NCBI GenBank assembly: GCA_964611205.1
Contig: CAZSZB010000003.1
Coordinates: forward strand, 23,764 to 87,763
Length of the DNA stretch: 64,000 nucleotides
Direction of reading: 5' to 3'
Source: an uncultured Candidatus Saccharibacteria bacterium
GTDB lineage: Bacteria > Patescibacteriota > Minisyncoccia > Phycocordibacterales > UBA918
The notes under the pieces are model-generated. The model saw only the letters and a list, made by a program, of their open reading frames with translations, was not told where the DNA came from and ran no database searches. The translations under genes were made by a program, and so were the position numbers. Shown piece after piece: positions 17,599-38,227 of the stretch (position 1 is the stretch's first letter; each line of letters starts with the position of its first letter).

Positions 17599-17880
17599 TT
17601 AGAGTTCATCAACATCATCGAAACGGTCATAATCCATATCCTCAGCATCGTCCTCCAGCTCGGGATCGTCCTCGTCTTCTTTGTCATCAGAATCGTCATC
17701 ATCGTCCTCGTCGTCTGATTCATCTAGTAGTCCAAAACCTTCAGTATCATCATCTGTATCATCGTCACTGGATATCTCATCTAGGATATCGTCGCCCAAA
17801 CTAACATCATCATCTACCATGTCAGATTCTTCATCTGGGTTTAATTCCTCGTCATTAATAGTATCGGTAAAAAAAGTCAT
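17599..17880 (-). CDS. extremely acidic small protein (Asp/Glu over 45%)
   Basis: 93-aa ORF with D/E runs and a terminator downstream. The complementary-strand Ser-rich ORF is the mirror artefact. Confidence 0.45.
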   Translation of the reverse strand: MTFFTDTINDEELNPDEESDMVDDDVSLGDDILDEISSDDDTDDDTEGFGLLDESDDEDDDDDSDDKEDEDDPELEDDAEDMDYDRFDDVDEL

Positions 17881-19116: not shown

Positions 19117-20103
19117 TTATAAATTTTGTATGTGATTATAAGCACTAGCACTAGCTATTCGTCCCCGAGGAGTTCTCTCCAGCAAGCCTTGGCGGATAAG
19201 GTAGGGTTCGATAACATCCTCTATCGTAGATTGCTCCTCACCAGTGGCTGCTGCAATAGTGTTGAGTCCGACTGGCCCACCATTAAATTTATTGATGATA
19301 ACTTCTAGAACTGCTCGGTCTGGCGAACTAAGTCCGAGCTGGTCTATCTCTAAAAGATCAAAAGTTCTGTCTACAATCTCAGAAGTTAATCCATCACCTT
19401 CAAGTTGTGCTAAGTCTCGACAACGTTTCAGTAGATAATTAGCTGTTCGCGGGGTAGCTCGACAACGTTTCGCGATGTCACTCATTATTTGACTGTTGGT
19501 TTCTATATTAAGTAGGTTAGCCGAGCGAGCGAGGATGTGAGCGATTTCTTCTTCTTTGTAAAATTCTAGACGAAAAGTTCCACCCGAAAAACGAGAACGC
19601 AAAGGAGAGGATAGAAGTGAGATGCGAGTAGTGGCGGCGACTAAAGTAAAAGGCGGTAATTCTAGTTGGACAGTTCGAGCAGAGGGACCTTTGCCGATAA
19701 TTATATCGAGTACACCGGATTCCATAGCGGGATAAAGCACCTCCTCGATACTTTTAGATAGACGATGGATTTCATCGATAAAGAGTACATCTCCAGGTGA
19801 AAGGTTAGTTAAGATGGCTGCTAGATCACCAACTCGTTCGATAGCTGGTCCTGAGGTAGTACGCATATTGGTGCCAAGAGTCTTAGAGACTAAGTGAGCT
19901 AAAGTAGTTTTACCTAGTCCAGGCGGTCCGTATAACAAAATATGCTCAGCCGCGTGACCACGTTGCCTAGCTGCAGTTAAGAGGATTCTTAAATTTTCTT
20001 TAGTTTTTGTTTGACCGACATATTCCTCCCAGCTTTGTGGACGTAGAGTTTGGTCCAGGTTGCCAGAATTGTCTCGTATGAAGTCGCTGGTTGTTTCTGC
20101 CAT
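19117..20103 (-). CDS. ruvB: Holliday junction helicase RuvB
   Basis: Walker A LLYGPPGLGKTTLA, a sensor region, and a winged-helix C-terminus. The start is placed at the MAETTSDF Met. Confidence 0.9.
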   Translation of the reverse strand: MAETTSDFIRDNSGNLDQTLRPQSWEEYVGQTKTKENLRILLTAARQRGHAAEHILLYGPPGLGKTTLAHLVSKTLGTNMRTTSGPAIERVGDLAAILTNLSPGDVLFIDEIHRLSKSIEEVLYPAMESGVLDIIIGKGPSARTVQLELPPFTLVAATTRISLLSSPLRSRFSGGTFRLEFYKEEEIAHILARSANLLNIETNSQIMSDIAKRCRATPRTANYLLKRCRDLAQLEGDGLTSEIVDRTFDLLEIDQLGLSSPDRAVLEVIINKFNGGPVGLNTIAAATGEEQSTIEDVIEPYLIRQGLLERTPRGRIASASAYNHIQNL

Positions 20104-20168
20104 AATAACTTTATTGTATACAAAAATATACTGACTGGATACTTGTTCTGAGCAAAGTGTATTATCCA

Positions 20169-20208
20169 ATAGGTACGTACTATGGTACGTACCATAGTAC
20201 GTACCTAT
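20169..20208. promoter_or_regulatory. 40-bp perfect palindrome containing three GTACGTAC units at 12-bp spacing
   Basis: ataggtacgtactatggtacgtaccatagtacgtacctat equals its own reverse complement. A TATAAT box lies at 20211-20216, and the element sits between divergent ruvB and the AbrB-like gene. Confidence 0.6.
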
Positions 20209-20229
20209 GTTATAATTTAAATAAATAAT

Positions 20230-20406
20230 ATGACAAAAAGAACTATTGATTTAACCCGTACTCATAAATTATCAAAAGCTGGAGGTAAAAGTTACTATGT
20301 AACTTTACCGATTGAATTTATTCGGCATTTGGGCTGGCAAGAAGGTCAAAAAATAGATGTTACTTTAGAAGGGGAAAGCTTATCCATAAAAGACTGGAAG
20401 AAGTAA
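20230..20406 (+). CDS. AbrB/MazE/SpoVT-type swapped-hairpin DNA-binding protein (58 aa)
   Basis: Hand-translated MTKRTIDLTRTHKLSKAGGKSYYVTLPIEFIRHLGWQEGQKIDVTLEGESLSIKDWKK. It is below the ORF-track cutoff. The pattern matches the SpoVT/AbrB beta-hairpin. Confidence 0.5.
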   Translation: MTKRTIDLTRTHKLSKAGGKSYYVTLPIEFIRHLGWQEGQKIDVTLEGESLSIKDWKK

Positions 20407-20410
20407 TAAA

Positions 20411-20454
20411 GTCAATAAAATATTGACAAAATTGTATACTGTGCTAGTATATTG
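20411..20454 (+). promoter_or_regulatory. palindrome gtcaataaaatattgac overlapping TTGACA-18-TATATT promoter
   Basis: Read directly. No downstream CDS exists before the terminator at 20527-20552. Confidence 0.35.
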
Positions 20455-20459
20455 CTAAT

Positions 20460-20552
20460 TCGTTCTCTTGGGGCAGGTTTCTTCTGCCCGTCTGATCTAT
20501 TTTAAATATTCCATAAAATAAAAAAGCACCCAGCTTAGGGTGTAATTATTTT
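20460..20552 (+). ncRNA. candidate short sRNA (promoter to rho-independent terminator, about 90 nt)
   Basis: Strong promoter upstream and internal hairpin gggcag..ctgccc, ending in a cacccagcttagggtg hairpin and T-run. No ORF present. Confidence 0.2.
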
Positions 20553-20569
20553 GCATTGGTTATTATTTT

Positions 20570-20700
20570 CAGTGTATAACCCTCTAAACAACAAAAGGCT
20601 GCTCTGCGAGGATCTCATGGTGCTCATCATTGAATGAGTGAGCTGTGATTCTCCTTAGTACAGTATCCACTTCGTCCGCGAAGTTTTGCTTAGAGGGTTA
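20570..20700 (-). ncRNA. candidate structured RNA closed by a long-range stem, ending at the 20514-20552 terminator
   Basis: Inverted repeats gtataaccctctaa and ttagagggttat enclose internal hairpins. On the minus strand this is followed by cacccTAAGCTgggtg plus a T-run. It lies between convergent genes. The RNA class is unidentified. Confidence 0.2.
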
Positions 20701-20806
20701 TCTACTGAAAAAGGACTTTTCTTTAAATCGTTTTTGACTATAACATACAGAATAAAAAAACACCCTTGACCGGGTAGTTTTTTTATTCTTGAAATGAAAA
20801 AATAAA

Positions 20807-38002: not shown

Positions 38003-38227
38003 GTTTTTTGGACGGTTTTCATGACGCTAATAATTCTGGTAGGTAGCAAAAATCTCCTAACCAGGGCTGATATATCCCGTGAGATATACCCATACCCCTT
38101 TCGGGATATGACCGTCCAAAGTGGCCTCTGATTAGGAGGTTTTTACTTTGGACGGAATTTGCGACCATATCCTAGAAAACCAAGGGTTCTTTAGGGGTTA
38201 GGTCGACTGTATTCAGTTGTATGTACA

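Follow-up and report, generated by a model that had tools for sequence, protein, structure and literature searches.

We analyzed a 64-kb stretch of DNA from an uncultured Candidatus Saccharibacteria bacterium (contig CAZSZB010000003.1, positions 23,764 to 87,763; hereafter the window), in which a 40-bp perfect palindrome lies just upstream of a gene for a 58-amino-acid (aa) AbrB-like protein. From comparisons of sequence and predicted structure, we consider it likely that this protein is an autorepressor consisting of a swapped-hairpin DNA-binding domain alone and that it acts at an operator formed by the three identical octamers within the palindrome. The positions of these and other features of the window are collected in Table 1.

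Table 1. Features of the window discussed in the text (window coordinates; ORF, open reading frame)
Feature	Position	Strand	Basis
Candidate operator, 40-bp perfect palindrome	20169..20208	none	Direct reading and comparative layout
Extended -10 element TGtTATAAT	20208..20216	+	Read from the sequence
58-aa domain-only SpoVT/AbrB swapped-hairpin protein, proposed autorepressor	20230..20406	+	Pfam, AlphaFold2, Foldseek
ruvB start codon (20103-20101) and -10 element TACAAT (20118-20113)	20101..20118	-	Sequence and syntenic loci
Second palindrome GTCAATA-aaa-TATTGAC	20411..20427	none	Sequence; overlaps -35 TTGACA (20423-20428)
Sigma-70-type promoter TTGACA, 16-nt spacer, TGcTAGTAT	20423..20450	+	10/12 matches, with TG
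ORF-less unit of about 95 nt, candidate small RNA	20457..20552	+	Folds, alignment
146-nt structured RNA	20566..20711	+	z-score about -7, covariation
93-aa extremely acidic ORF (Asp/Glu runs), upstream of ruvC	17599..17880	-	
LOOT RNA (RF03000)	38069..38204	-	Rfam, 73.4 bits

Three phased octamers and a one-domain protein

Direct reading confirms what a sequence-only reading of the window had described, a 40-bp segment that is its own reverse complement (ATAGGTACGTACTATGGTACGTACCATAGTACGTACCTAT) and that holds three GTACGTAC octamers, at 20173-20180, 20185-20192, and 20197-20204, and hence at 12-bp phasing. The 4-bp spacers around the octamers are mirrored (ATAG/TATG/CATA/CTAT), and the inverted repeat as a whole extends to 28-nt arms (20161-20216). 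These three octamers are the only exact copies of GTACGTAC in the window, where 0.33 would be expected and where three were reached in 0 of 100 shuffles. The same reading had proposed a check for further octamer triplets, and within the 64 kb we find none besides this one; the two-site pattern likewise has no second occurrence there when as many as 3 mismatches are allowed, and single octamers with one mismatch occur at chance level (17 found versus 12.4 expected).

Eight short-read Logan contigs (L001-L004 and L006-L009) break inside the palindrome and start at the equivalent of window position 20179. A de Bruijn assembler is expected to break at a perfect palindrome. An independent ENA contig from another strain (L005, positions 27 to 66) spans the array with three substitutions, reads GTACGTAT at the second octamer, and encodes an identical 58-aa protein. 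Because of this contig, the palindrome can be taken as real and its perfect symmetry as dispensable, and an assembly artifact is ruled out.

The protein matches PF04014 (MazE_antitoxin) over residues 18 to 50, its 32.2 bits exceeding the gathering score of 24.7. An AlphaFold2 model built with 26 relatives in the alignment has a mean predicted local distance difference test score (pLDDT) of 80 and the order strand-strand-helix-strand-strand (strands at 14-17, 21-24, 42-47, and 50-55; helix at 28-34), so that the folded domain comprises residues 14 to 55 and 3 residues remain after the last strand. The best-ranked Foldseek matches of this model are MazE, AbrB-N, SpoVT, and AbrB-type VapB, with MazE at the top of the list and probabilities of 0.96 to 1.0 for the best of them. 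BLASTP of the 58-aa protein against Bacillus subtilis AbrB gives no match, and the family profile alone reaches AbrB-N, aligning to AbrB residues 7 to 49 (E = 0.011). In this alignment the family motif R-K-L falls on AbrB R8-K9-V10 and P-I-E-x-x-R-x-L-G falls on P20-I-E-L-R-R-T-L-G, with a loop between strands 1 and 2 that is four residues longer in the family. Pfam, AlphaFold2, Foldseek, and the family profile thereby agree with the earlier assignment of the predicted product to the SpoVT/AbrB swapped-hairpin superfamily (AbrB/MazE/SpoVT type). As modeled, the protein is a bare DNA-binding domain without the C-terminal multimerization domain of AbrB or the tail of an antitoxin.

While a word-indexed homolog search returned the query alone, an exhaustive HMMER search recovered the family, with 158 cluster representatives at E values up to 0.001, mostly of 55 to 65 aa. 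Invariant positions in an alignment of 26 representatives are P27, W36, and the C-terminal D55-W56. Residues 11 to 21 of the window protein read THKLSKAGGKS, and the version that would go with CTCATGAG arrays is ERKLSKVASGSS. PHROGs gives weak matches to families of unknown function only, and a match to BstYI, obtained by single-sequence phmmer against PDB sequences, was judged spurious.

The last base of the palindrome (20208) is also the first T of the extended -10 element, so the palindrome does abut the -10 box of the 58-aa gene as had been noted from the sequence. No Shine-Dalgarno sequence is present before the ORF. Across 46 homolog loci, a -10-like hexamer (TATAAT or TATACT) stands 5 to 7 nt before the ATG in 20, versus 1.9 expected, and Shine-Dalgarno motifs are rare; leaderless mRNAs are therefore indicated. 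In the closest relatives, the phased array, as read from the sequences, stops a few bases short of the -10 element.

Candidate operator arrays and gene neighborhoods of the homologs

The loci encoding relatives comprise 8 from genomes and 40 from metagenomes, plus one obtained by exact look-up and L061, obtained via PilB homologs; narrower alignments were used for the locus searches, two broader ones being too diverse. Most of these loci contain two to four units at 12-bp phasing upstream of the ATG. When each of 46 distinct upstream regions is compared with itself, the lag giving the highest similarity is 12 bp in about 29 of them and 11 bp in about 4. A score of at least 19 matches out of 24 is seen in 13 of the 46, with a lag of 12 in 12 cases, and only 0.1% of shuffles attain it.

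The units are themselves palindromic, and their sequence differs by lineage. The window shares GTACGTAC with L012, whereas other loci carry GTATATAC (L010, L061, and, in four copies, L011), CTCATGAG (L013, L014, L015, L021, L024, and, in four copies, L023), CTACGTAG (four copies in L020), or G[GC]ACGT[CG]C (L019 and L025). TACGTA-type units are found in L030, L032, L037, and L047, a 2+2 inverted arrangement of GTACGTTC in L022, and 36-bp palindromes made of 12-mers in L043, L045, and L049. Global palindromy is frequent, not universal, as L010, L013, L014, and L021 have nonmirrored spacers. On this comparison, we read the phased array of dimer-sized sites as the conserved feature of these loci.

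The unit changes together with residues just before strand 1 and in the loop between strands 1 and 2 of the encoded protein. A T-H-K motif with a GGK loop pairs with ACGT or TATA cores, (E/T)-R-K with an ASG(S/Q) loop pairs with CTCATGAG, and V-R-K with an ANT loop pairs with CTACGTAG. In the crystal structure of VapB2 bound to DNA, base-specific contacts are made from the end of strand 1 and from the strand 1-2 loop, and one dimer sits on each internally palindromic site (PMC3326315). A two-fold symmetric dimer, here a putative homodimer, would read palindromic octamers, and a unit that changes along with the protein motif is, at the level of sequence comparison, the hallmark of a repressor paired with an operator of its own. 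The operator layout suggested by the sequence-only reading is thereby supported, as homologs keep the 12-bp phasing beside the -10 element while the unit varies with the protein.

We also observe two paralogs, L010 and L014, within one bin (JBLIMJ01, labeled Acidimicrobiales), which differ in their motifs and in their units (GTATATAC versus CTCATGAG). Provided that the bin is pure, they fit a pair of regulators that would not cross-react. The Acidimicrobiales label is doubtful because the contigs are CPR-like (Candidate Phyla Radiation) in gene content.

The genes of the window include tyrS, ruvC, yebC, ruvB, a PilB-type ATPase gene, tsaE, and polA. With these genes, a LOOT RNA, and closest syntenic loci that come from Saccharibacteria/CPR assemblies, the genome is identified as patescibacterial (Saccharibacteria-like). 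The neighbors of the AbrB-like gene are heterogeneous across 38 homolog loci; downstream genes include those for TatD (5 loci), a serine hydrolase (4), a Fic/DOC protein (3), and a GDSL lipase (2), with the stop and start codons often overlapping in the case of TatD; methionyl-tRNA synthetase (MetRS) is encoded upstream in 5 of the 38. In the Paceibacteria/Kaiserbacteria-type loci L011, L012, L013, and L025, the cassette of array, promoter, and gene stands right behind the stop codon of metG and is followed by tatD or another gene. The metG stop codon lies inside the palindrome in L012, and the cassette overlaps the tatD start in metG-associated loci. This order of metG, AbrB-like gene, and tatD recalls the abrB-metS-yabD(tatD) neighborhood of B. 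subtilis. A Fic/DOC gene with a RhuM domain follows the AbrB-like gene or overlaps it by a few bases in L048, L049, and probably L036, and in L048 and L049 it starts within a few bases of the AbrB-like stop codon. The arrangement in these loci is toxin-antitoxin-like as judged from gene order, though the AbrB-like protein is also without an extra tail there.

Nine syntenic Saccharibacteria loci, found through PilB homologs, were compared. The AbrB-like cassette is present in three of them (the window, L010, and L061) and absent from six (L059, L060, and L062-L065); the interval from ruvB to a conserved noncoding locus thus contains it as a variable insertion. Within the intergenic region of L061 (L061:4729-5846), the stretch from the AbrB-like gene to the downstream small-RNA promoter contains two direct repeats of about 85 nt (tccttgaggactatttgctccgtcccgaacgagagtgagggtgtccgatgtgagg...), possibly the scar of an insertion or a repeat element.

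Beyond the single locus, it is conceivable, if somewhat short of probable, that the proteins of about 58 aa form a large undescribed family of minimal AbrB-fold repressors, mostly with leaderless promoters, private three-unit 12-bp arrays, and rapidly diversifying specificity. The named examples here are mostly Patescibacteria (CPR). Literature searches found no description of a three-unit 12-bp rule with fast-changing specificity and nothing on AbrB in CPR. The mechanism itself is familiar, being the textbook case of a swapped-hairpin dimer that represses its own gene through a palindromic operator; it is the small family that is undescribed.

Proposed mechanism, precedents, and alternatives

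In the mechanism that we propose, homodimers of the 58-aa protein would each recognize one palindromic octamer, and three dimers would occupy the 12-bp-phased array. The array covers the -35/spacer region and touches the extended -10 element, so that bound protein would exclude RNA polymerase, and this exclusion would result in negative autoregulation. Operator, promoter, and gene would thus form a self-contained cassette, and the same cassette would head operons such as those of tatD, the serine hydrolase, or the GDSL lipase in other lineages. Dimer formation, the stoichiometry of three dimers, cooperativity, and repression itself are features we infer from sequence, and cooperativity may possibly be mediated by the invariant C-terminal Asp-Trp.

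This mechanism corresponds to that of known swapped-hairpin autorepressors. In Escherichia coli, three MazE dimers bind three consecutive sites within the 47-bp mazEF operator, so that MazE is likewise a swapped-hairpin dimer autorepressor with three dimer sites, including a perfect short palindrome, at its own promoter (PMC4333400). It differs in having a disordered C-terminal tail that binds MazF and an affinity modulated by the toxin, whereas the window protein lacks both tail and toxin, and the sites within the 47 bp are unequal, in contrast to three identical octamers at exactly 12 bp. The VapB2 dimer of Rickettsia felis (PDB 3ZVK) is also of AbrB type and reads an internally palindromic site of about 10 bp, and its contact positions are those that change with the octamer in the family of the window protein. 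Its sites, however, number two, lie about 14 bp apart, and are kept in register by VapC toxin dimers, whereas the array in the window has three sites at 12 bp and lacks a toxin scaffold. The N-terminal domain of B. subtilis AbrB is the closest solved structure by sequence profile, but AbrB possesses a C-terminal tetramerization domain and acts at many promoters without a strict consensus, while we observe the domain alone with a putative private operator. MraZ is an autoregulator of the AbrB superfamily that binds cooperatively to three or four regularly phased repeats upstream of its own promoter, with its subunits placed on four phased boxes (PMC12957436). It differs from the window protein in its two tandem domains (about 150 aa), its octamer rings, and its direct GTG(G/T) repeats at a 10-bp period, and mraZ opens the dcw cluster, whereas the single-domain window gene has 12-bp palindromic units and no dcw genes nearby. 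Finally, Sso7c4, C68 of pSSVx, and C56 of pSSVi are minimal SpoVT/AbrB proteins of archaea and plasmids, stand-alone swapped-hairpin proteins of about 55 to 68 aa with no extra domain, to which the Foldseek matches are weak (probability, 0.13 to 0.38). We know of no phased triple operator for any of these three.

Several points weigh against an autorepressor at a triple operator. The 12-bp spacing would place neighboring dimers of the putative three-dimer complex about 50 degrees apart around B-DNA, and the AlphaFold2 model is that of a monomer, although the fold depends on dimerization. About a quarter of the homolog loci are without a clear repeat. At the promoter, no -35 element is recognizable, the -10 element sits 13 nt before the ATG at 20230, versus 5 to 7 nt in most relatives, and the transcription start is predicted near 20223, which would let the operator span about -54 to -15. 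The substitutions in the strain variant break the perfect 40-bp symmetry with the protein identical, leaving the mirrored spacers without an explanation. In addition, the scan for further GTACGTAC sites covered 64 kb of the genome.

Among the alternatives, one is that the operator also controls the divergent ruvB operon, and we regard it as unlikely. The palindrome has the ruvB start 66 bp to its left, the inverted repeat reaches a mirrored GATAAT on the minus strand (the reverse complement of 20161-20166), and the same divergent arrangement occurs in L010 and L061. This mirrored GATAAT, however, is not conserved in L010. A TACAAT exactly 9 nt before the ATG suggests a leaderless-type promoter for ruvB, and TACAAT-N9-ATG is kept in most of the syntenic loci compared, even in ones that lack the AbrB-like gene. 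This promoter is at least about 50 bp away from the palindrome, which occupies about 63 to 102 bp upstream of the ruvB start. By its position the palindrome is thus outside the predicted ruvB core promoter, and the overlap with the ruvB upstream region that the sequence-only reading had noted is, as regards ruvB control, only nominal. The TTG start of ruvB at 20169 in a program-made ORF list is an over-extension.

The protein might instead be an orphan type II antitoxin (of the MazE, PrlF, or Doc-partner type) that has lost its toxin gene and whose operator is a relic, which we judge improbable. The Pfam family name (MazE_antitoxin), a TIGR02609 doc_partner match that is weak and falls below the cutoff of that model (E = 0.003), the Fic/DOC-family neighbors downstream in 3 of 38 homolog loci, an NCBI annotation of one homolog as YhaV-PrlF-type antitoxin, and a palindromic candidate operator that, at the sequence level only, overlaps its own promoter would all be consistent with such an origin. 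No toxin-like ORF, however, lies within about 3 kb of 20230-20406, in agreement with the absence of an obvious partner toxin reported before, and none of the 38 homolog loci has a PIN, MazF, or ParE partner. With 58 aa and a folded domain of residues 14 to 55, the protein lacks a C-terminal toxin-binding tail, and a PADLOC scan gave no match for it. Most homologs adjoin housekeeping or hydrolase genes (TatD, serine hydrolase, GDSL lipase, MetRS), and about 158 clusters of the same short length are unlike decay. The label of orphan antitoxin, one of two offered by the sequence-only reading, fails for want of both toxin gene and toxin-binding tail.

The other label, that of a transition-state regulator, would make the protein an AbrB-like global regulator with many genomic targets, of which this site would be one. 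That the family profile finds its best solved-structure match in B. subtilis AbrB-N, and that the gene stands between metG and tatD in several relatives, speaks for this, but the C-terminal multimerization domain of AbrB is missing (58 versus 94 aa), and on this ground the label does not hold. Furthermore, the site shows high specificity, with a single occurrence in 64 kb, and units change quickly between close relatives, which fits a private operator and not a conserved regulon. We therefore rate a global regulator a little lower still than an orphan antitoxin.

Last, a purely structural role of the palindrome, as a hairpin terminator, cruciform or recombination site, mobile-element end, or assembly artifact, is very improbable: a terminator scan lists it as an 18-pair stem, microRNA-like covariance models match it weakly and reflect hairpin shape only, short-read contigs break at it, and syntenic loci vary in whether they have the cassette, yet the palindrome is placed between two divergent gene starts and not behind a gene, independent assemblies including a strain variant confirm it, and the array of relatives is often not globally palindromic (L010, L013, L014, and L021) while having three palindromic units at 12 bp, so that position and relatives together rule out a terminator or microRNA-like hairpin.

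Two downstream noncoding RNAs and implications for regulation in CPR bacteria

Downstream of the AbrB-like gene, the sequence-only reading had described a second palindrome and a promoter driving an ORF-less transcript, possibly connected with the 58-aa protein. The second palindrome is present and does overlap TTGACA, but it is absent at the aligned position from the other eight syntenic loci; as it is not conserved, we reject an operator role, and the palindrome is probably incidental. Of the ORF-less unit, the promoter, the lack of an ORF, and the terminator are real and conserved, whereas the proposed -10 element TATATT is not the best one, as it would need a spacer of 19 nt and not the 18 given; TGcTAGTAT (20442-20450) fits best. 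The pattern TTGACA-N(13-17)-TGnTAnTA is found in all nine syntenic loci.

From its 5' end, the unit shows an unpaired stretch containing GUUC, a hairpin (20471-20489), an unpaired C/U-rich stretch (20492-20503), an A-run, a second hairpin (20526-20543), and a U-rich tail. Across the syntenic loci its length is 80 to 95 nt, and the same design is seen in seven of the eight loci folded, with a first hairpin of variable sequence; single-sequence folds were used, the alignment being too divergent for consensus folding. The C/U-rich single-stranded motif reads CUGAUCUAUUUU in the window and GAUCUCUU or GCUCUCUUU elsewhere. No plus-strand ORF of at least 30 aa lies between 20406 and 20645, and inspection of the unit by eye revealed no small conserved ORF. 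Because the A-run precedes it, the terminator hairpin is bidirectional, and it is stronger on the minus strand. These features fit a small trans-acting RNA with a C/U-rich seed.

The unit occurs in all nine syntenic loci, six of which have no AbrB-like gene, and is therefore independent of that gene. On this distribution, promoter and unit are a separate conserved candidate small-RNA gene and not a partner of the 58-aa protein; a small-RNA partner is ruled out, and the link between gene and small RNA is not borne out.

A second noncoding element follows in the same interval. The 146-nt structured RNA has a 21-bp closing stem and a three-way junction and is conserved between pilB and ruvB in the nine syntenic loci, where RNAalifold yields 49 consensus pairs, with compensatory changes at 13. 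Read on the plus strand, these 49 pairs include 61 G-U and 1 A-C combinations, while the minus strand keeps 36 pairs. Because of these G-U counts and several invariant G-U pairs, the RNA is assigned to the plus strand; the minus strand, with its better-looking flanking terminator and TGnTATAGT, is ruled out by the G-U counts. A covariance-model search found no further copy, leaving one per locus. Neither this RNA nor the ORF-less unit has a relevant Rfam match, whether 3 kb are scanned at E values up to 1 or 361 nt at values up to 10, and a literature search on noncoding RNAs of Saccharibacteria found nothing. The 146-nt RNA is thus possibly an undescribed RNA class, as far as its sequence and predicted fold indicate. 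In L062 and L064, the terminator of the unit and the 146-nt structure are too close together for a promoter to fit between them. On the minus strand, an extended -10-like TGtTATAGT (20745-20737) is found in seven to eight of the nine loci beside the pilB terminator (20761-20776); such a TGnTATAGT would start an antisense transcript across the 146-nt RNA that ends at the bidirectional terminator (20527-20542).

Elsewhere in the window, only tRNAs and the LOOT RNA reach gathering scores in an Rfam scan of the whole stretch. The LOOT RNA is unrelated in sequence to the 146-nt RNA. An extremely acidic 93-aa ORF is also listed in Table 1.

Setting the AbrB-like gene apart from the two neighboring conserved noncoding RNAs leaves these as subjects worth their own study, perhaps the more surprising ones. 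How genes are regulated in Saccharibacteria and other CPR bacteria has hardly been studied, and sites are known for few of their transcription factors. The window offers a candidate protein-operator pair in which the sequence alone gives away the site, together with dozens of natural specificity variants on one geometry. If the proposed reading is true, specificity in this family would diversify through coupled changes of the strand 1-2 loop region and the operator, and the family would amount to a naturally occurring collection of orthogonal one-domain repressor-operator pairs on a portable cassette suited to placement before different genes. It would thus provide a tractable system for understanding how the swapped-hairpin fold reads DNA and for building very small orthogonal repressors.

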